A stretch of 64,000 bases of DNA from NCBI RefSeq assembly GCF_054482525.1, contig NZ_CM137006.1. The stretch is one strand, 5' to 3'. Position 1 is the first letter of the stretch. Each line of letters starts with the position of its first letter. The notes under the pieces are model-generated. The model was not told the origin of the DNA, searched no databases, and was given only the letters and a program-made list of their open reading frames with translations. Both the position numbers and the translations under genes were made by a program. Shown here piece by piece: positions 1 through 10,119 of the stretch.

Positions 1-2427
1 AATCCGCATTTTCGTAGCGTAAAACATGATCCTGTCTTGGTGCGTCAATTACCCGTTAAAAACCTGACATTAGCCGATGGCAGCACCTGTCCGGTGGTTA
101 GCGTTTATGATTTGGTACTGGCGAATTACGGCCTCGATCGCGGGCTGGAAGATGAAAACAGCGCGAAAGATTACGCTGAAATCAAACCGTACACCCCAGC
201 CTGGGGTGAGCAAATTACCGGTGTGCCGCGCCAGTATATTGAAACCATCGCTCGTGAATTTGCCGATACTGCCCATAAAACGCATGGGCGCTCGATGATT
301 ATCCTCGGCGCAGGTGTTAACCACTGGTACCACATGGACATGAACTACCGGGGAATGATCAATATGCTGATCTTCTGCGGTTGTGTCGGGCAAAGCGGTG
401 GCGGATGGGCACACTATGTCGGTCAGGAAAAACTGCGCCCGCAAACTGGCTGGTTGCCGCTGGCCTTTGCGCTCGATTGGAACCGACCACCGCGCCAGAT
501 GAACAGCACCTCGTTTTTCTACAATCATTCCAGCCAATGGCGCTATGAAAAAGTCTCTGCTCAGGAGTTACTTTCACCGCTCGCCGATGCCAGTAAGTAC
601 AGCGGTCATCTGATTGATTTCAACGTTCGTGCCGAACGTATGGGCTGGCTACCTTCTGCGCCGCAGCTGGGGCGTAACCCGCTCGGGATTAAAGCTGAAG
701 CCGACAAGGCCGGATTATCCCCCACAGAATTTACCGCCCAGGCGCTGAAATCGGGCGATTTACGCATGGCCTGCGAACAACCAGATAGCGGCAGCAATCA
801 TCCGCGTAATTTGTTTGTCTGGCGTTCTAACCTGCTTGGCTCCTCCGGCAAAGGCCACGAGTATATGCAGAAGTATCTGCTGGGAACCGAAAGTGGGATT
901 CAGGGTCAGGAACTCGGTGCCAGCGACGGGATCAAACCAGAAGAAGTCGAGTGGCAAACTGCGGCGATTGAAGGCAAGCTCGACCTGCTGGTGACGCTCG
1001 ACTTCCGTATGTCCAGTACCTGCCTGTTCTCCGATATCGTTCTGCCCACCGCCACCTGGTACGAAAAAGACGATATGAACACCTCGGATATGCATCCGTT
1101 TATTCATCCGCTTTCTGCGGCGGTCGATCCGGCGTGGGAATCACGCAGCGACTGGGAAATCTACAAAGGTATTGCCAAAGCCTTTTCGCAAGTGTGCGTG
1201 GGCCATCTTGGCAAAGAAACCGACGTGGTATTACAACCACTGCTGCATGACTCTCCGGCAGAACTCTCACAGCCGTGTGAAGTGCTCGACTGGCGCAAAG
1301 GCGAATGCGATCTGATTCCAGGTAAAACTGCGCCCAATATTGTGGCGGTGGAACGCGACTACCCTGCTACCTATGAACGCTTTACCTCGCTCGGGCCATT
1401 GATGGACAAACTTGGCAACGGCGGTAAAGGGATTTCGTGGAATACCCAGGATGAAATCGATTTCCTCGGCAAACTCAACTACACCAAGCGTGAAGGCCCG
1501 GCACAGGGGCGTCCGCTGATTGACACCGCCATTGACGCATCAGAAGTGATTCTGGCGCTGGCACCGGAAACCAACGGTCATGTTGCAGTCAAAGCGTGGC
1601 AGGCACTGGGCGAGATCACCGGACGCGAACATACCCATCTGGCGCTGCACAAAGAGGACGAGAAGATTCGCTTTCGCGATATTCAGGCGCAGCCACGTAA
1701 AATTATCTCCAGCCCCACATGGTCCGGTCTGGAAAGCGATCACGTTTCCTATAACGCGGGATACACCAACGTTCATGAGTTAATTCCGTGGCGCACGCTG
1801 TCGGGACGCCAGCAGCTTTATCAGGATCATCCGTGGATGCGTGCTTTTGGTGAAAGCCTGGTGGCTTATCGCCCGCCTATCGACACCCGTAGCGTCAGTG
1901 AAATGCGCCAGATACCGCCAAACGGCTTCCCGGAAAAAGCACTTAACTTCCTGACGCCGCACCAGAAATGGGGCATTCACTCAACCTACAGTGAAAACCT
2001 GCTAATGCTGACGCTCTCTCGCGGTGGACCGATTGTCTGGATTAGCGAAACCGATGCCCGTGAACTGACCATTGTCGATAACGACTGGGTGGAAGTGTTT
2101 AACGCCAACGGCGCGCTGACTGCCCGCGCGGTGGTCAGCCAACGTGTACCGCCGGGTATGACCATGATGTATCACGCTCAGGAACGCATTATGAATATTC
2201 CTGGTTCGGAAGTAACTGGCATGCGCGGCGGCATTCATAACTCGGTCACCCGCGTTTGTCCGAAACCAACGCATATGATTGGCGGTTACGCGCAGCTGGC
2301 CTGGGGCTTTAACTACTACGGCACCGTCGGCTCGAACCGCGATGAATTCATCATGATCCGCAAGATGAAGAACGTTAACTGGCTGGATGATGAAGGTCGC
2401 GATCAGGTACAGGAGGCGAAAAAATGA
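1..2427 (+). CDS. narZ: Respiratory nitrate reductase 2 alpha subunit, C-terminal part (5' end outside window)
   Basis: Frame is open from base 1 to the TGA at 2425-2427; the track start at 37 is an artefactual TTG. Molybdopterin-oxidoreductase-like sequence followed by narY, narW, narV in operon order. Confidence 0.9.
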   Translation, partial: NPHFRSVKHDPVLVRQLPVKNLTLADGSTCPVVSVYDLVLANYGLDRGLEDENSAKDYAEIKPYTPAWGEQITGVPRQYIETIAREFADTAHKTHGRSMIILGAGVNHWYHMDMNYRGMINMLIFCGCVGQSGGGWAHYVGQEKLRPQTGWLPLAFALDWNRPPRQMNSTSFFYNHSSQWRYEKVSAQELLSPLADASKYSGHLIDFNVRAERMGWLPSAPQLGRNPLGIKAEADKAGLSPTEFTAQALKSGDLRMACEQPDSGSNHPRNLFVWRSNLLGSSGKGHEYMQKYLLGTESGIQGQELGASDGIKPEEVEWQTAAIEGKLDLLVTLDFRMSSTCLFSDIVLPTATWYEKDDMNTSDMHPFIHPLSAAVDPAWESRSDWEIYKGIAKAFSQVCVGHLGKETDVVLQPLLHDSPAELSQPCEVLDWRKGECDLIPGKTAPNIVAVERDYPATYERFTSLGPLMDKLGNGGKGISWNTQDEIDFLGKLNYTKREGPAQGRPLIDTAIDASEVILALAPETNGHVAVKAWQALGEITGREHTHLALHKEDEKIRFRDIQAQPRKIISSPTWSGLESDHVSYNAGYTNVHELIPWRTLSGRQQLYQDHPWMRAFGESLVAYRPPIDTRSVSEMRQIPPNGFPEKALNFLTPHQKWGIHSTYSENLLMLTLSRGGPIVWISETDARELTIVDNDWVEVFNANGALTARAVVSQRVPPGMTMMYHAQERIMNIPGSEVTGMRGGIHNSVTRVCPKPTHMIGGYAQLAWGFNYYGTVGSNRDEFIMIRKMKNVNWLDDEGRDQVQEAKK

Positions 2428-3968
2428 AAATACGTTCGCAAGTCGGCATGGTGCTTAACCTCGATAAATGTATCGGCTGCCATACCTGTTCGGTGACCTG
2501 TAAAAACGTCTGGACCGGACGCGAAGGCATGGAGTACGCATGGTTTAACAACGTCGAAACCAAACCGGGCATTGGTTATCCGAAAAACTGGGAAGATCAG
2601 GAAGAGTGGCAAGGCGGCTGGGTGCGTGATGTGAATGGCAAGATCCGCCCGCGTCTGGGCAGCAAGATGGGCGTAATAACCAAAATCTTCGCCAACCCGG
2701 TGGTGCCGCAGATTGATGATTACTACGAACCTTTCACCTTCGACTACGAACATTTGCATAGCGCACCGGAAGGCAAACATATCCCTACTGCTCGCCCGCG
2801 TTCACTGATTGACGGCAAACGGATGGACAAAGTGATCTGGGGGCCAAACTGGGAAGAATTGTTGGGCGGCGAATTCGAAAAACGCGCCCGTGACCGCAAC
2901 TTCGAGGCCATGCAAAAGGAGATGTACGGGCAGTTTGAAAACACCTTCATGATGTACCTGCCGCGCCTGTGCGAACACTGCCTCAATCCCAGTTGCGTGG
3001 CAACCTGCCCAAGCGGCGCTATCTACAAACGCGAAGAAGACGGCATTGTGCTGATCGATCAGGATAAATGCCGTGGCTGGCGTTTGTGCATTAGCGGTTG
3101 TCCGTACAAAAAAATCTACTTCAACTGGAAAAGCGGCAAGTCAGAAAAATGTATCTTCTGTTACCCACGAATTGAGTCAGGCCAACCCACCGTGTGCTCA
3201 GAAACCTGCGTGGGTCGCATCCGGTATCTGGGCGTGCTGCTTTACGACGCCGACCGCATCGAGGAAGCGGCGAGCACCGAGCGCGAAGTTGACCTCTATG
3301 AACGCCAGTGCGAAGTGTTCCTCGATCCGCTCGATCCCTCAGTGATCGAAGAAGCCCTGAAACAAGGTATTCCACAAAACGTGATTGAAGCTGCTCAGCG
3401 TTCGCCAGTCTACAAAATGGCGATGGACTGGAAACTGGCGTTACCGCTGCACCCTGAATACCGCACCCTGCCGATGGTCTGGTACGTTCCTCCGCTGTCA
3501 CCGATTCAGTCTTACGCTGATGCGGGCGGCTTGCCGAAAAGCGAAGGCGTGCTGCCCGCCATCGAAAGCCTGCGTATTCCGGTGCAATATCTCGCCAATA
3601 TGTTGAGTGCCGGCGATACCGGTCCGGTACTGCGGGCGCTGAAACGGATGATGGCGATGCGCCACTATATGCGTTCACAAACCGTGGAAGGCGTTACCGA
3701 TACCCGCGCCATTGACGAAGTAGGCCTGAGCGTCGCCCAGGTCGAAGAGATGTATCGCTACTTCGCCATTGCCAACTATGAAGACCGTTTTGTCATTCCA
3801 ACCAGTCATCGGGAAATGGCGGGCGATGCCTTCGCAGAACGCAATGGCTGCGGTTTTACCTTTGGCGACGGTTGCCACGGCTCGGACAGCAAATTCAACC
3901 TGTTCAACAGTAGCCGTATCGATGCCATCAACATCACCGAAGTGCGCGACAAAGCGGAGGGCGAATAA
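2424..3968 (+). CDS. narY: Respiratory nitrate reductase 2 beta subunit (iron-sulfur)
   Basis: 514 aa; ATG overlaps the narZ stop (ATGA). Cys clusters typical of NarH-type Fe-S subunits are visible (CIGCHTCSVTC, CEHCLNPSCVATCP, CRGWRLCISGCP, CIFCYPR). Confidence 0.9.
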   Translation: MKIRSQVGMVLNLDKCIGCHTCSVTCKNVWTGREGMEYAWFNNVETKPGIGYPKNWEDQEEWQGGWVRDVNGKIRPRLGSKMGVITKIFANPVVPQIDDYYEPFTFDYEHLHSAPEGKHIPTARPRSLIDGKRMDKVIWGPNWEELLGGEFEKRARDRNFEAMQKEMYGQFENTFMMYLPRLCEHCLNPSCVATCPSGAIYKREEDGIVLIDQDKCRGWRLCISGCPYKKIYFNWKSGKSEKCIFCYPRIESGQPTVCSETCVGRIRYLGVLLYDADRIEEAASTEREVDLYERQCEVFLDPLDPSVIEEALKQGIPQNVIEAAQRSPVYKMAMDWKLALPLHPEYRTLPMVWYVPPLSPIQSYADAGGLPKSEGVLPAIESLRIPVQYLANMLSAGDTGPVLRALKRMMAMRHYMRSQTVEGVTDTRAIDEVGLSVAQVEEMYRYFAIANYEDRFVIPTSHREMAGDAFAERNGCGFTFGDGCHGSDSKFNLFNSSRIDAINITEVRDKAEGE

Positions 3969-4663
3969 TGCAGATCCTCAAAGTGATCGGCCTGTTGATG
4001 GAGTATCCGGACGAGCTGTTATGGGAATGTAAGGAGGATGCGCTGGCGTTGATCCGCCGCGACGCACCGATGCTTACGGATTTTACCCGCAACCTGCTTA
4101 ACGCGCCGCTGCTGGATAAACAGGCCGAATGGTGCGAAGTGTTTGACCGTGGACGTACCACATCGCTGCTGCTGTTCGAACATGTTCATGCCGAGTCCCG
4201 TGATCGCGGCCAGGCAATGGTGGACCTGCTGGCGGAGTATGAAAAGGTCGGCCTGCAGTTGGATTGTCGAGAACTGCCCGATTATCTACCGCTGTATCTG
4301 GAGTACTTAAGCGTACTGCCGGACGATCAGGCGAAAGAAGGCTTGCTCAACGTTGCGCCGATCCTCGCCCTGCTTGGCGGACGCTTAAAACAACGCGAGG
4401 CATCGTGGTACGCGTTATTTGACACCCTGTTGCAACTGGCAGGAAGTACACTTTCAAGTGACAGTGTCACAAAACAGGTGAACAGTGAGGAGCGCGATGA
4501 CACCCGCCAGGCACTGGATGCGGTGTGGGAAGAGGAACAGGTGAAGTTTATTGAAGATAACGCCACGGCGTGTGACAGCTCGCCGCTTAATCAATATCAG
4601 CGACGCTTTAGCCAGGATGTCGCGCCGCAGTATGTCGACATCAGTGCGGGAGGTGGGAAATGA
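3968..4663 (+). CDS. narW: Nitrate reductase 2 assembly chaperone (delta subunit)
   Basis: 231 aa; start overlaps narY stop; position and size match NarJ/NarW. Confidence 0.85.
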
Positions 4664-5340
4664 TTCAGTATCTGAACGTCTTTTTTTATGATATCTACCC
4701 GTACATTTGTGCGACAGTGTTTTTCCTCGGCAGCTGGCTGCGCTACGACTACGGGCAGTATACCTGGCGCGCCTCCTCGAGTCAGATGCTCGATAAACGC
4801 GGGATGGTGATATGGTCGAATCTGTTCCATATCGGCATTTTGGGGATTTTCTTCGGGCACCTGTTCGGCATGTTAACGCCGCACTGGATGTACGCGTGGT
4901 TTCTGCCGGTGGCGGTAAAACAGCAGATGGCGATGGTGCTCGGTGGTATTTGCGGTGTATTGACGTTGATTGGCGGCGCAGGACTGCTGTGGCGCAGGCT
5001 GACTAATCAGCGTGTGCGTGCAACTTCCACTACGCCGGATATTATCATCATGAGCATTTTGCTGATCCAGTGTCTGCTGGGGCTAAGTACCATACCGTTT
5101 TCAGCACAGTATCCTGATGGTAGCGAAATGATGAAGCTGGTGGGTTGGGCGCAAAGCATTGTCACTTTCCGTGGTGGATCGTCAGAAATGCTTAACGGCG
5201 TAGCGTTCGTTTTCCGCCTGCATCTGGTATTGGGAATGACCATCTTCCTGCTCTTCCCGTTCACCCGACTGGTGCATGTGTGGAGCGCGCCGTTTGAGTA
5301 CTTTACTCGTCGGTATCAGATTGTGCGTTCGCGGCGATAA
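4660..5340 (+). CDS. narV: Respiratory nitrate reductase 2 gamma subunit (membrane cytochrome b)
   Basis: 226 aa, strongly hydrophobic with conserved His; ATGA overlap with narW; last gene of the operon. Confidence 0.85.
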
Positions 5341-5419
5341 TTTTCACCCTGGCCGGATAGCCCTTCGCTCTCCGGCCACTTGCAGGCTATGATAGTTCTC
5401 CAGCCACAGGAGAACGTTA

Positions 5420-6313
5420 ATGAAACCGCAGGTGTACCACGTCGATGCTTTTACCTCACAACCGTTTCGCGGCAATTCTGCCGGTGTTGTTTTCCCCGCC
5501 GATAATCTCAGTGAAGCGCAAATGCAGCTTATCGCCCGCGAATTAGGTCATTCCGAAACTGCTTTTCTGCTGCACAGCGACGACAGCGATGTACGCATCC
5601 GCTACTTTACGCCAACGGTTGAAGTGCCGATTTGCGGTCACGCGACAGTAGCTGCGCACTATGTCCGTGCGAAGGTGCTAGGTTTAGGAAATTGCACGAT
5701 CTGGCAAACGTCACTGGCAGGAAAACATCGCGTGACTATCGAAAATCACAATGATGATTATCGTATTTCACTGGAACAAGGTCCGCCGGGCTTTGAGCCA
5801 CCGCTGGAAGGTGAAGCTCGCACGGCAATTATCAACGCGCTTCATCTCACTGAAGACGATATTCTGCCAGGCTTGCCAATTCAGGTGGCAACCACAGGAC
5901 ACTCAAAAGTGATGATCCCACTGAAACCAGAAGTGGATATCGACGCCCTTTCGCCTGATCTTGCTGCGCTGACCGCTATCAGCAAACAGATTGGCTGCAA
6001 TGGTTTCTTCCCGTTCCAGATCCGCCCAGGCAAAAACGAAACCGATGGTCGTATGTTCTCGCCTGCCATTGGTATTGTGGAAGATCCGGTGACTGGCAAT
6101 GCCAATGGCCCGATGGGTGCATGGTTGGTACATCACAACGTATTGCCCCACGATGGCAACGTGTTGCGTGTTAAAGGCCATCAGGGGCGCGCATTGGGGC
6201 GTGACGGCGTGATTGAAGTGACGGTGATAATTCGCAATAACCAACCGGAGAAAGTCACCATTTCTGGCACAGCGGTGATTTTGTTTCATGCCGAATGGGC
6301 AATTGAATTCTGA
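5420..6313 (+). CDS. yddE: PhzF-family isomerase-like protein
   Basis: 297 aa; sequence and position (between narV and nhoA) match YddE. Confidence 0.8.
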   Translation: MKPQVYHVDAFTSQPFRGNSAGVVFPADNLSEAQMQLIARELGHSETAFLLHSDDSDVRIRYFTPTVEVPICGHATVAAHYVRAKVLGLGNCTIWQTSLAGKHRVTIENHNDDYRISLEQGPPGFEPPLEGEARTAIINALHLTEDDILPGLPIQVATTGHSKVMIPLKPEVDIDALSPDLAALTAISKQIGCNGFFPFQIRPGKNETDGRMFSPAIGIVEDPVTGNANGPMGAWLVHHNVLPHDGNVLRVKGHQGRALGRDGVIEVTVIIRNNQPEKVTISGTAVILFHAEWAIEF

Positions 6314-6320
6314 AACCGTT

Positions 6321-6384
6321 GCCTGATGCGCTTCGCTTATCAGGTCTATGTATGCCGGATAAGGCGTTTACGCCGCATCCGGCA
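6321..6384. repeat. REP (repetitive extragenic palindromic) element between convergent yddE and nhoA
   Basis: gcctgatgcgcttcgcttatcaggtctat followed by tgccggataaggcgtttacgccgcatccggca: canonical REP consensus in two palindromic units. Confidence 0.55.
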
Positions 6385-6396
6385 ACCTGACATAAA

Positions 6397-7242
6397 TTAT
6401 TTTCCCGCCTCCGGGTGCGTATCAAACGCCGCCATCACCATCGCTAACTCATCCACAGTAAAGCCATGTTTCGCATCATCTACGCCCAGACCAAACTGTT
6501 CCTGCATCACGGTATATAACGACGCCACATCTGGTAGATTTCGCTGCTCCACCGCGTGCCCATTTTCATAATGGGTAAAATGAAAATTGGTCAGCGTTAG
6601 CTTGCCACCGTCCGGCAAATGGCGGTACATCAGCAAATGATGGCGAAAATGCGACTGCGGCCAGTGCGCAGACCAGAAATTGCCCATTACATAATCGCTT
6701 TGTTGCTGCTCGCAGAGATCAAAACGGTACATCGACTGCCAGTGCTGATGATGATTAAACTGCAACACCCAATCATCACCCTCCTGTAACAACCGATACT
6801 CTCCGTGTGGCGTGATCTGCACGAGATCGGGAACTAAACGAATCGGCGCGGTTAGCGTCTGTCCACCGAAACCGACATCAGCAATCCATTTTTCCCCTTC
6901 CAGTTCCACCAACAACAAACGATGGGTGCGCGGCGGTAATGCTGGCGGATTTGATAACACTACGCGCCCTAACAAGCTGCGAACGTTAAACCCCAGCTCG
7001 CGTAACACCCGCTCAAACACGCCATTCTGCTCAAAACAGTAACCGCCACGACGGGCTGTCACCAGTTTCTCTTCCAGCGATTGATCATCAAGCTGTATTT
7101 CCCTTGGCAGCAAAACGTCGAGGTTTTCAAATGGAATGGTGCAATTGTGTTTCAGGTGCAATGCACGCAGCGTATCAACATTGACCGCAGCAGCTCCCGA
7201 CCAGTTAATACGGGCAAAATAATGATTCAGAATGGGCGTCAT
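6397..7242 (-). CDS. nhoA: Arylamine N-acetyltransferase (N-hydroxyarylamine O-acetyltransferase)
   Basis: 281 aa; NAT-family sequence at the expected position. Confidence 0.85.
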   Translation of the reverse strand: MTPILNHYFARINWSGAAAVNVDTLRALHLKHNCTIPFENLDVLLPREIQLDDQSLEEKLVTARRGGYCFEQNGVFERVLRELGFNVRSLLGRVVLSNPPALPPRTHRLLLVELEGEKWIADVGFGGQTLTAPIRLVPDLVQITPHGEYRLLQEGDDWVLQFNHHQHWQSMYRFDLCEQQQSDYVMGNFWSAHWPQSHFRHHLLMYRHLPDGGKLTLTNFHFTHYENGHAVEQRNLPDVASLYTVMQEQFGLGVDDAKHGFTVDELAMVMAAFDTHPEAGK

Positions 7243-7416
7243 CAGGCGTTTCCCTTAGTGGTTTTCTCAACTTATAACCTGGAATAGACGCCGCACCGGC
7301 TATTTTGTGCGATCGCGGACATGCATCACGTTCGCAAATCGCCAATCCCGTTAATTTCGTTACTTATAGCGTTACGAGCTACGCTTTTAAAACACCCTTC
7401 TTAGCGAGGCGATACC

Positions 7417-7986
7417 GTGAGCCGATTTATCCCCGTCGAATTACACCATGCCAGCCGTCTGTTAAATCATGGCCCAACTGTCTTGATCACCAGTTTCGAT
7501 GAGCAATCCCAGCGGCGTAACATTATGGCAGCAGCCTGGTCAATGCCGGTGGAGTTTGAACCGCCACGCGTGGCGATTGTGGTAGATAAATCGACATGGA
7601 CCAGGGGGTTGATTGAACGTAATGGTAAGTTTGGCATCGTTATCCCGGGTGTTGCAGCAACTAACTGGACGTGGGCGGTGGGAAGTGTGTCGGGGCGTGA
7701 TGAAGATAAGTTTAATTGCTATGGTATTCCGGTTGTGAAAGGTCCGGTACTTGGTTTGCCTCTGGTCGAGGAAAAATGTCTGGCGTGGATGGAGTGCCGC
7801 TTGCTACCTGCGACTTCCGCGCAAGAAAAATACGACACGCTGTTTGGCGAGGTGGTATCAGCAGCGGCAGACGCACGGGTATTTGTCGAAGGCCGCTGGC
7901 AGTTTGATGATGATAAACTCAATACACTACATCACTTAGGTGCTGGCACGTTTGTTACCAGCGGCAAGCGAGTCACCGCGGGCTAA
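7417..7986 (+). CDS. yddH: Flavin reductase-like domain protein
   Basis: 189 aa, GTG start; matches YddH size and context. Confidence 0.75.
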   Translation: MSRFIPVELHHASRLLNHGPTVLITSFDEQSQRRNIMAAAWSMPVEFEPPRVAIVVDKSTWTRGLIERNGKFGIVIPGVAATNWTWAVGSVSGRDEDKFNCYGIPVVKGPVLGLPLVEEKCLAWMECRLLPATSAQEKYDTLFGEVVSAAADARVFVEGRWQFDDDKLNTLHHLGAGTFVTSGKRVTAG

Positions 7987-8051
7987 AGAATCATATGCAG
8001 CAACCAAGTTGCTTAAGCAATGTTTCAATATGAGTTAAAAGCATACTTTAT

Positions 8052-8249
8052 TTACGATTGTATATTTTTAGTGAAGATTAATTTATCCTCACCAATATCA
8101 TAGTAATTGCGTATTATAGCTTCATTGATAAAGCCCTGTTTTGTATAAAATGCGCGGGTGGCACTAAAATCGACATAGCTGGAGGTCTCTACTAAAAGTA
8201 GTCTTGCGTGATTGGGACAGGTCAAGAAAAAGCAGTTTTGCAGTTTTTT
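8052..8249 (-). pseudogene. Remnant of a GNAT-family N-acetyltransferase (C-terminal about 65 codons, no start codon)
   Basis: Minus-strand frame translates to ...LLLVETSSYVDFSATRAFYTKQGFINEAIIRNYYDIGEDKLIFTKNIQS*, resembling the C-terminal motif of GNAT acetyltransferases such as RimI; frame is closed by TGA just upstream and has no Met. Confidence 0.3.
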
Positions 8250-8377
8250 ATTTCAGGGCACAGTTGCGAAAATTGAATACCGTATGGACTAATGTGAGAA
8301 AATTCCGAGGTATGACTGTTTTGATATAGTGGACAATCAAGCGTCTCGAATTAACAATGAATTTCAGGTGCCAAGCC

Positions 8378-8623
8378 TTACAATTTGTAGCATGACGGAT
8401 ATAGGACAACATTAGGAAATCGGACAGAAAATTCATTATAATAAAATGACAACTTATCTCTTTCTCTCACGTTCTGTGAAATTTCACAAAAGTATAAACT
8501 GAGCCAATATGCCTTTATATATAAAAAATACTCATGTTTATTATTATCGGAAAAAGCCAAGATTTTGTCAAGGCCATCAAAAATATCTTTATCATGATCT
8601 ATATGTACTCTTGATGATTTCAC
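8378..8623 (-). CDS. Hypothetical 81-aa protein, unsupported ORF in AT-rich DNA
   Basis: Track ORF with GTG start immediately 3' of the H-repeat transposase; no recognizable family and no good ribosome-binding site. Confidence 0.15.
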   Translation of the reverse strand: MKSSRVHIDHDKDIFDGLDKILAFSDNNKHEYFLYIKAYWLSLYFCEISQNVRERDKLSFYYNEFSVRFPNVVLYPSCYKL

Positions 8624-9800
8624 AATACAGGGAAAGATTACGAAAGCCCGCTCCCCGCAAGGACTGACGCGAGATAGTTTCTGTCCATGGCTGCTTTTCG
8701 CATCTTACGTCTTAACCCTGCCTTGAATACCTTATCATTCGTCAAAATATTAATAGCGATGTGCCGTATCCCTGAAAATAATTCTGCGGCGTTTCCTCTT
8801 CTTATTTTGCAGTCGTCTTCATTCATTACCACGTCCAGACGCCAGTGCAGCTTATTCTCTACGTGCCAGTGATTTCGGATCGCTGTGGCGAACTTTTCTG
8901 CGGTTAAATCAGCAGAACTGATATAATATCTGACCGTCATTTCTGGCTCTTTCTTTTGTTCTGCTATTATTGACCGAAAAGAGACTGCCACGCATAATTT
9001 CTTCAGTCCTTTCCATTCAAACGTGAAATCAATAAGTTCATCAGGGACATCGCAAACAATATGAAGACGGATTTCTTCTCTGCCGTGACTCTTTTCACTT
9101 ATTTCGTAACTGTCATGCTCTGGATTATTTAATTCTTTCAGCGGAAATTTTCCCTCAAAGGCTTTATTTAGTCGTCCCTGATTTCCTTTTACAGCGAATA
9201 AATAATCACCGCCCTGTTTTTGTATCTTCTCTGCAATATCTTTCTGGCAACCCATCGCATCAGTTGTGATGATTTTTCCTTTAATATCCAGCATCTTAAG
9301 AAGTTCAGGGATAGCTGTAATTTCATTGGATTTCTCATCCGTCCTGATCTGTCCGATGACCAGACTGTGCATTGTTGAGAACGCACTAATGACATGAATC
9401 GCTCCCTTGCGGCGACTCTTGTCATAAGAGTGCCGGAGTGTTTTTCCATCAATTGAGATGACGTCTTTATCATCTGAAGAATGACAATCACGCATCCAGT
9501 TAATAAAGCACTCGTGAAATTTTGCAGGACTGATACAGGATACAACTCTGGCGATGGTATCGTGAACAGGAATACCATTTTCAAAATCACCATATTGTTT
9601 TAAAAAATCGAGATGTGTTTCCCCAAAATCCTCTATACCTTCCCAACCTTCTGCACCCGAAATAACGGCACAAATAGTCAACAGTAGAATATCCGATAAT
9701 TTATGTTCCACTTTCCAGGCTTGTCTGTAATCGGGGATAATAGAAATATGTTCCATCATTTTTTTAAGTTCCATTTTGTTCTCCTTAATTATGTAAGGAG
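8600..9800 (-). mobile_element. H-repeat (ISAs1-like) insertion element, approximate extent
   Basis: Transposase ORF plus short flanks; terminal inverted repeats were not identified, so the boundaries are approximate. Confidence 0.5.
8638..9774 (-). CDS. H-repeat-associated protein (ISAs1-family DDE transposase), apparently intact
   Basis: 378 aa with [18 protein letters not shown]... N-terminus typical of E. coli H-rpt proteins; ATG preceded by an aggag ribosome-binding site; Rhs-locus context. Confidence 0.85.
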
Positions 9801-10052
9801 TATTTGATCATGTATAAGCAATAAAAACAGCTTTAGGTAATGAGGAATATCTCAATTTTTAAACATAAAATGCGAATTATTTAGTACAGAAAGTGAACTT
9901 CTGATGATCTTTCCCTGCCCATTGGGTTCATTAAGATCAAGAATAATGGGAATATGCTCAAGAAGACTTTGAATGTTCACCAGACGTCCTTTTCTAATAT
10001 ATTTAATTATTTGGCGATTGAATTTTAATCAAATCAACAAGGTAAAACCAAG

Positions 10053-10084
10053 ATTAAAGTTGTGATGATAATCACAACTTTAAT
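10053..10084. repeat. Perfect 14-bp inverted repeat with 4-nt loop
   Basis: attaaagttgtgat gata atcacaactttaat, 36 to 67 nt 3' of the putative immunity gene; AT-rich stem, so not a typical intrinsic terminator. Confidence 0.5.
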
Positions 10085-10119
10085 GATCTTCCCCTGATTC
10101 CTCCAGTCCTTTTATTTGG

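Follow-up and report, generated by a model that had tools for sequence, protein, structure and literature searches.

Arrays of orphan toxin/immunity genes located beside CDI and Rhs loci, some of them disrupted by insertion sequences (IS), are well established (Poole et al. 2011, PMC3150448). In the standard arrangement the toxin gene is followed by the immunity gene (PMC3150448, PMC3482391), and orphan immunity genes can be expressed through co-transcription (PMC3150448). In E. coli K-12, the chromosomal site studied here is occupied by the rhsE locus (rhsE-ydcD-yncI-ydcC-pptA-yddH), where pptA lies between ydcC (H-rpt) and yddH and overlaps the yddH stop codon by 4 bp. H-rpt elements are classic substrates for recombination at Rhs loci.

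The window (the whole stretch of E. coli DNA that was analysed, 64,000 nucleotides) shares with the K-12 locus its gene order (narV-yddE-nhoA-yddH) as well as the presence, beside an Rhs element, of an H-rpt/ISEc1 element, which over 1291 bp is 95.7% identical to that of K-12 (ydcC). The core genes are narV (4660-5340), yddE (5420-6313), nhoA (6397-7242, minus strand) and yddH (7417..7986, plus strand), the last core gene before the variable stretch, which encodes a protein of the flavin reductase family (Pfam Flavin_Reduct, 76 bits) and is called yddH by PGAP in strain PCN033. Between the IS and yddH, K-12 has an intact pptA, which in the window gives way to 607 bp of unrelated AT-rich remnants; likewise, K-12 has an rhsE pseudogene and the window a full-length Rhs core gene (10491..14645, minus strand, 1384 aa; 'RHS element core protein' of PGAP in PCN033). 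The C-terminal tip of its product is a Tox-WTIP toxin domain (Pfam, 50.2 bits, last 203 residues). Directly downstream lies the candidate Rhs immunity gene (10120..10464, minus strand), annotated as a hypothetical protein in PCN033, whose product has no significant Pfam match. Over positions 7401-10600 (3.2 kb) the window is 99.97% identical to PCN033, in which PGAP gives the order yddH, no annotation, ydcC (ISAs1 transposase), hypothetical protein, RHS core protein and frameshifted VgrG.

The variable stretch between yddH and the H-repeat transposase gene (7987-8637, 651 bp) has a computed G+C content of 33.5%, compared with ~52% for the flanking core genes (yddH 52.5%, narV-yddH 51.5%, whole window 50.5%), and PGAP calls no gene in it in the identical genomes listed. 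The preliminary description had seen here AT-rich filler, interpreted as decayed cargo on the margin of the Rhs/H-rpt island and not as working genes. The composition agrees with this, as does the content, since both homologous parts are gene tails, neither of which is able to make its original protein. The stretch is very probably non-functional debris that three separate lesions produced at the end of the VgrG/Rhs toxin island nearest yddH. A search of the 64-kb window for EndoU, for the 186-aa gene described below and for extra copies of either remnant gave no match.

The preliminary description had placed a small tautomerase gene at this site in K-12 and reported it missing from the window. 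Both points are correct: the K-12 gene between ydcC and yddH is pptA, and K-12 PptA, used as a tblastn query, gave no match at E<1 in the 64 kb. The BLAST alignment between K-12 and the window ends at position 8020, and its last ~34 bp (7987..8020, minus strand) resemble the C-terminal codons of pptA at ~70% identity with a 2-bp indel. This short match weakly suggests a relic of the pptA 3' end and, with it, that most of an ancestral pptA gave way to accessory DNA. As the earliest step, AT-rich accessory DNA would have come to occupy the pptA site in a haplotype found in a minority of E. coli (~12% of complete genomes). In its fullest form, the accessory DNA would have been an array of small genes ending in the 186-aa, 211/220-aa and 155-aa GNAT genes; such an array is present in CP053258, with small genes of 90, 110, 140, 186 and 220 aa and without IS, Rhs or VgrG at the site.

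The remnant closer to yddH is the 3' part of a gene for a RimI-like GNAT N-acetyltransferase (8052..8210, minus strand), with 52 codons and the stop codon left, corresponding to residues ~104-155 of 155. A start-less GNAT C-terminal fragment had been proposed for the open frame 8052..8249 (minus strand), which contains the ORF 8052..8225 (minus strand), and a translated search had been suggested as a check. The fragment indeed aligns to intact GNATs, with 78% identity to residues 104-154 of a 155-aa Salmonella protein (P0005; BLASTP, E 2e-28), but the assignment holds for 8052-8210 and not for 8211-8249, which is unrelated read-through past a deletion junction. The remnant has no start codon of its own, its homology starting at 8210, residue ~104. 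A full-length 155-aa protein was reconstructed by joining the N-terminus encoded in strain 2012C-4502 (locus L002) to the C-terminus encoded in the window; its residues 105-155 equal window positions 8207..8055 at 100% (tblastn). Like other RimI-like GNATs, the reconstructed protein is over the Pfam cutoffs, for Acetyltransf_7 (PF13508; 36.9 bits, cutoff 27) and for Acetyltransf_1 (PF00583; 29.2 bits, cutoff 20.7), whereas the window retains the last 52 codons only. By itself, the fragment has no Pfam match at E<=1 and a sub-threshold NCBIfam match to rimI only (16.7 bits vs a cutoff of 86.4). The best NCBIfam match of the GNAT (rimI) has 34.6 bits, far under the cutoff of 86.4, so the protein is not RimI itself. 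Intact homologs of 154-157 aa with 70-83% identity are found in Enterobacterales (Salmonella, Enterobacter, Phytobacter, Citrobacter, Kluyvera and Serratia), as stand-alone cargo in varied contexts. A TacT-type toxin was also considered for the GNAT and rejected: the remnant does not meaningfully resemble the TacT-like GNAT of locus L016, no antitoxin gene lies upstream in 2012C-4502, and the intact homologs stand alone.

Where the window has 651 bp, 2012C-4502 has 1115 bp, with an annotated 126-aa "GNAT family N-acetyltransferase". Window positions 7402-8213 correspond to 4416-5228 of this locus and positions 8211-10600 to 5692-8044, and the 463 bp between them (5229-5691) are missing from the window. 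The deletion junction (8210..8211) is also present in strains Ecol_316 (L003) and EC42405 (L014). Gone are GNAT codons 1-~103 and 157 bp upstream. Motif A (Q/R-x-x-G-x-G/A), which binds acetyl-CoA, is part of the GNAT fold; in the reconstructed protein it reads QRQGVG (residues ~83-88) and falls in the missing 463 bp. In a second step, this deletion would thus have removed the upstream region, the start and the first ~103 codons including the Q-x-x-G-x-G motif. All E. coli GNAT copies examined are broken: 2012C-4502 has an AAA -> TAA nonsense change (FYT*), UTI89, N31 and CP053258 have a frameshift, and the copies of the window, Ecol_316 and EC42405 have lost the 463 bp.

Positions 8211..8377 once separated the GNAT gene from the 211-aa gene as intergenic DNA, and most of the 62-aa ORF (8248..8436, minus strand) lies here; the start of the ORF falls within the tail of the 211-aa gene, in a different frame. 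The orthologous sequences of 2012C-4502 and of the IS-free array L009 have a TAG at codon 22 and an indel. Because related haplotypes have a stop codon in it, the 62-aa ORF is best taken as spurious, a chance ORF; it has no Pfam or NCBIfam match, and none of the three window ORFs has a Pfam match at E<=1. ORF length was discarded as a sign of coding: when the 651 bp were shuffled 2000 times, 12% of the shuffles had a longest open stretch of at least 81 codons, and 13% had a second-longest one of at least 62 codons (P about 0.12-0.13). The claim of remnants therefore stands on homology and not on ORF length.

The second remnant (8378..8627, minus strand) comprises 82 codons and the stop codon, residues 130-211 of a 211-aa protein, and contains the 81-aa ORF (8378..8623, minus strand), which begins with a GTG at 8623. 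The three ORFs of the preliminary description are confirmed (the frame 8052..8249, 8248..8436 and 8378..8623); its view of the 81-aa ORF as low-complexity has to be given up, and neither is the ORF there by chance, as the product shares 96% identity with residues 130-211 encoded by an intact gene (96.3% over window positions 8626..8381 in tblastn, E 8e-50). The intact gene (WP_001032567.1) is found in Ecol_316, in which the sequence of the window runs unbroken into it, and an intact copy is also present in EC42405. Judging from these alignments, the 81-aa ORF represents the 3'-terminal 39% of a genuine gene, which the IS end interrupts within codon 129.

The 211-aa family is small, its 17 clusters coming from E. 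coli, E. albertii, Shigella and Pseudocitrobacter. Neither the full 211-aa protein nor the 186-aa protein has a significant match in Pfam or NCBIfam, and the best hit of the 211-aa protein among PDB sequences (E 0.063) is not meaningful. Its AlphaFold2 model is all-helical and weak (pLDDT 65.5), and a Foldseek search of the model against the PDB gave no match with E<=0.001; as a weak model without a PDB fold match, the structure was left out of the evidence. An apparent concentration of conservation in the C-terminal third of the family was rejected, as it had been produced by the presence of the window fragment in the alignment.

In Pseudocitrobacter, the homolog (63% identity) begins 17 bp past an ORF with an EndoU_bacteria domain (57 bits), within a cassette of DUF2169 and Tox-PAAR-like T6SS genes that follows a VgrG-sized gene. 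In the loci L006-8, L015 and L017, the distance from the end of the EndoU sequence to the relative downstream is 16-17 bp, and EndoU sequence is also found upstream in L016. On a Shigella contig, an 88-aa ORF for the EndoU C-terminus lies directly upstream of the family member (71% identity, E 9e-41), and EndoU C-terminal sequence is found in the same position on a metagenome contig (E 2e-18) and on a Logan contig (E 2e-6); in E. albertii the upstream EndoU match is weak (E 0.015). Because relatives outside E. coli are located 16-17 bp downstream of EndoU, the 211-aa gene is likely an immunity gene against an EndoU-type RNase toxin. Gene neighbourhood being the one basis of this assignment, immunity is probably the role but is given here as a candidate function. 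No EndoU relic was found upstream of the 211-aa gene in the window or in the E. coli loci of Ecol_316, L009 and EC42405, and in E. coli the gene is an orphan at the end of a small-gene array. The resident Rhs tip is Tox-WTIP, so the 211-aa remnant is unrelated to the resident toxin. The site resembles the orphan modules described earlier in that an AT-rich array of small genes, distal to the main toxin gene, is disrupted by an IS, and in that relatives of the 211-aa gene pair with an EndoU toxin domain (PMC3150448). It differs from them in that the immunity-like gene, itself a candidate, is reduced to 39% of its length and has no toxin fragment beside it in E. coli.

The element that cuts this gene is an ISEc1/H-rpt of the ISAs1 family (8628..9917, minus strand, 1290 bp). 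Its terminal inverted repeats are an 11-bp perfect repeat (CAGGGAAAGAT), the window switching to the terminal repeat at 8628, and its transposase ORF (8638..9774, minus strand) has the Pfam domains DDE_Tnp_1 and DDE_Tnp_1_assoc (104 and 115 bits). The flanks of the element, TCACAATA and CCCATTGG, have no common repeat, i.e. no target-site duplication is present, which fits a later rearrangement. The IS end adjoins different sequence in K-12 and in Ecol_316. With the IS-free array L009 as the reference for positions, the junction is at ~7012 in Ecol_316 (upstream of the 186-aa gene), at 7795 in EC42405 (between the 186-aa and 211-aa genes), and at 8387 in the window (inside the 211-aa gene). 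The same IS end at three nested points suggests that the junctions were made by successive IS-adjacent deletions. In a third step, the right end of the IS would have come to lie inside codon 129 of the 211-aa gene, leaving the 82 C-terminal codons (8378-8627), most likely through an IS-adjacent deletion that also took the 186-aa gene. The combinations of the two lesions were compared as well, and all four occur: both in the window, the GNAT deletion only in Ecol_316, the IS junction only in 2012C-4502, and neither in CP053258. This requires recombination, or recurrence, within the 417 bp between the lesions.

The distribution was determined in 5426 complete genomes. Sequence of pptA type is present in 4659 and some part of the GNAT-type stretch in 660, while at least 80% of the 651 bp of the window is found in 237. 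Records with at least 99% identity to the 651 bp number 34, which contradicts the earlier impression of strain-specific DNA; the stretch is lineage-specific. The junction of IS and remnant occurs as a single piece in about 40 genomes, some of them 4-6% diverged, and in other lineages the AT-rich stretch is cut differently. Among the matches listed, the 651 bp are 100% identical in 30 of 30 genomes. This identity is a sign of close relatedness, the flanks being just as alike (99.97% over 3.2 kb). Synteny across E. coli, proposed at the outset as a test of the decayed-cargo reading, is in line with it, the stretch replacing pptA and consisting of the tails of two genes.

In the case of the three IS junctions, independent ISEc1 insertions or homologous recombination between H-rpt copies could have given the same picture, which we regard as somewhat doubtful. 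For a query of the IS-containing junction, the number of matches per E. coli genome has a median of 3 and a maximum of 9, the behaviour of H-rpt elements at Rhs loci is well known, and the four lesion combinations indicate that recombination does occur in the stretch. A simple insertion, however, should leave a target duplication and the window has none, and the junctions are nested from one side with identical IS orientation and IS end. Such a pattern is that of IS-adjacent deletions, in which one IS end is fixed and neighbouring DNA is lost to a varying extent from strain to strain without target duplication; here this mechanism is deduced from strain comparison, with recombination between H-rpt copies as the alternative. 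The ancestral role of the 211-aa gene can be questioned too. That it was other cargo, e.g. an aminopeptidase, is rather improbable and would leave the remnant reading unaffected. Some members carry the name aminopeptidase in NCBI and UniRef, but the peptidase families of Pfam and NCBIfam give no match, and the NCBI name of the 211/220-aa family, other members of which are "hypothetical", is unsupported by our searches. The E. coli and E. albertii members lie in arrays of small genes of unknown role and are not directly preceded by a toxin, and no known immunity family or fold matches the 211-aa protein, both of which would also favour other cargo; against this, EndoU is found 16-17 bp upstream in four independent contexts outside E. 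coli, in the standard pairing (PMC3150448, PMC3482391).

Turning from origin to present activity, the 82-codon remnant might be expressed as a truncated immunity or decoy protein, by read-through from H-rpt or from the promoter-like site at 8571..8543 (minus strand), which matches the sigma-70 consensus at 11 of 12 positions. The ORF is open from the GTG at 8623, 5 bp off the IS end, and no terminator-like site was found from 8638 to 8052 on the minus strand, so that transcriptional read-through from the transposase gene into the remnants may occur; co-transcription can express orphan immunity genes (PMC3150448). The kept part is also the best predicted in the AlphaFold model (pLDDT 80-94, residues ~120-200), and the same junction recurs in the ~40 genomes mentioned above, including the diverged ones. 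Still, expression as a useful protein is very unlikely: 129 of 211 codons, the N-terminal 61% of the protein, are missing, the GTG has no Shine-Dalgarno-like sequence upstream and its frame differs from that of the transposase, PGAP leaves the ORF uncalled, promoter-like sites in the stretch are at chance level (7 found vs 7.9 +/- 2.7 expected), and the EndoU toxin is absent from the window. The specific version in which the tail, transcribed from H-rpt and translated from the GTG, would have partial EndoU neutralising or decoy activity has a very slim chance of being right; if true, erosion of orphan immunity arrays by IS would create functional truncated immunity proteins and not just debris. 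Just as slim is the chance that the stretch has an overlooked function, as the source of a small RNA or of a small protein (the 62-aa or the 57-aa ORF) or as a regulatory site. Horizontally acquired AT-rich DNA frequently bears regulatory sites, and the stretch is 100% conserved in the identical genomes listed; this conservation is, however, explained by close relatedness, and the stretch is cut differently in other lineages. An Rfam search of 7300-10600 gave a single match at E<=1, located beyond the stretch at 9984-10084, with 21.6 bits vs a gathering score of 80.4; the 62-aa ORF is stopped at codon 22 in 2012C-4502 and L009, and the ORFs have no family match. We infer that non-functional debris is what the stretch now is.

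Overall, what is seen here on the border of a polymorphic-toxin island is ordinary decay, with two pseudogene tails and a chance ORF, a phenomenon that is already known. It can be annotated as two pseudogene remnants, which matters little for the window as a whole. The only mildly new point is that the 211/220-aa proteins probably form a hitherto undescribed family of immunity proteins against EndoU-type T6SS toxins, as their gene neighbourhoods suggest. Of the site itself, it can be added that the yddH-proximal end of the island at the rhsE site has IS-end junctions at three nested positions as well as recombination within 417 bp. The position beside yddH is also a recurrent hotspot for cargo, being occupied by pptA, by the RimI-like GNAT or, on one contig, by a tacA/tacT-like pair.

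Both lesions in the AT-rich 651 bp, the 463-bp deletion in the GNAT gene (junction 8210|8211) and the junction between the ISEc1/H-rpt element and the gene for a 211-aa protein (8627|8628), occur in E. coli in all four possible combinations (the window, 2012C-4502, Ecol_316, the IS-free array of CP053258, and EC42405). The presence of all four implies that recombination, or else recurrent events, took place within the 417 bp between them. The RimI-like GNAT gene adjoining yddH has been inactivated in E. coli by at least three independent routes, nonsense mutation, frameshift and deletion (loci L002, L004, L009 and L013), and no intact E. coli copy was seen among those examined; intact homologs are present in other Enterobacterales. 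Of the 661 hits obtained with the 651-bp stretch, 2 fall on records labelled plasmid.

The position beside pptA/yddH is a hotspot at which cargo recurs. In a Logan contig (SRR24146878, L016, region 1191-3906), a tacA/tacT-like pair of antitoxin and GNAT toxin has yncG/yncH-like genes on one side and a pptA-like gene for a tautomerase on the other, and its GNAT is unrelated to the remnant in the window.

In several taxa, an EndoU nuclease toxin sequence is found 16-17 bp upstream of members of the 211-aa family (L006, a Pseudocitrobacter locus, 3993-5037; contigs L015, 6718-7615, and L017, 2-749; and L016, 1-831). They probably form an undescribed immunity family. Its members are named "aminopeptidase" or "hypothetical" by NCBI, the former name being without support.

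Upstream of the Rhs gene, the gene for VgrG (14712-16856, minus strand) is broken into two ORFs, one at 14712-15038 and the other at 15045-16856, and in E. coli PCN033 VgrG, yncG and yncH are all labelled "frameshifted" by PGAP; the module that delivers Rhs may be defective. The C-terminal tip of the Rhs protein carries a Tox-WTIP domain (10491-11102, minus strand, 50 bits), and the candidate immunity gene for this tip is presumably the small ORF downstream (10120-10464, minus strand), for which a search for a family match returned none.

The IS left-end repeat occurs a second time, as CAGGGGAAGATCAT, at 10083-10096, 166 bp past the real IS end, just after a 32-bp terminator-like palindrome on the minus strand (the two together span 10053-10096). 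By chance, 0.03 such matches are expected. This second copy may be a relic of another H-rpt end.
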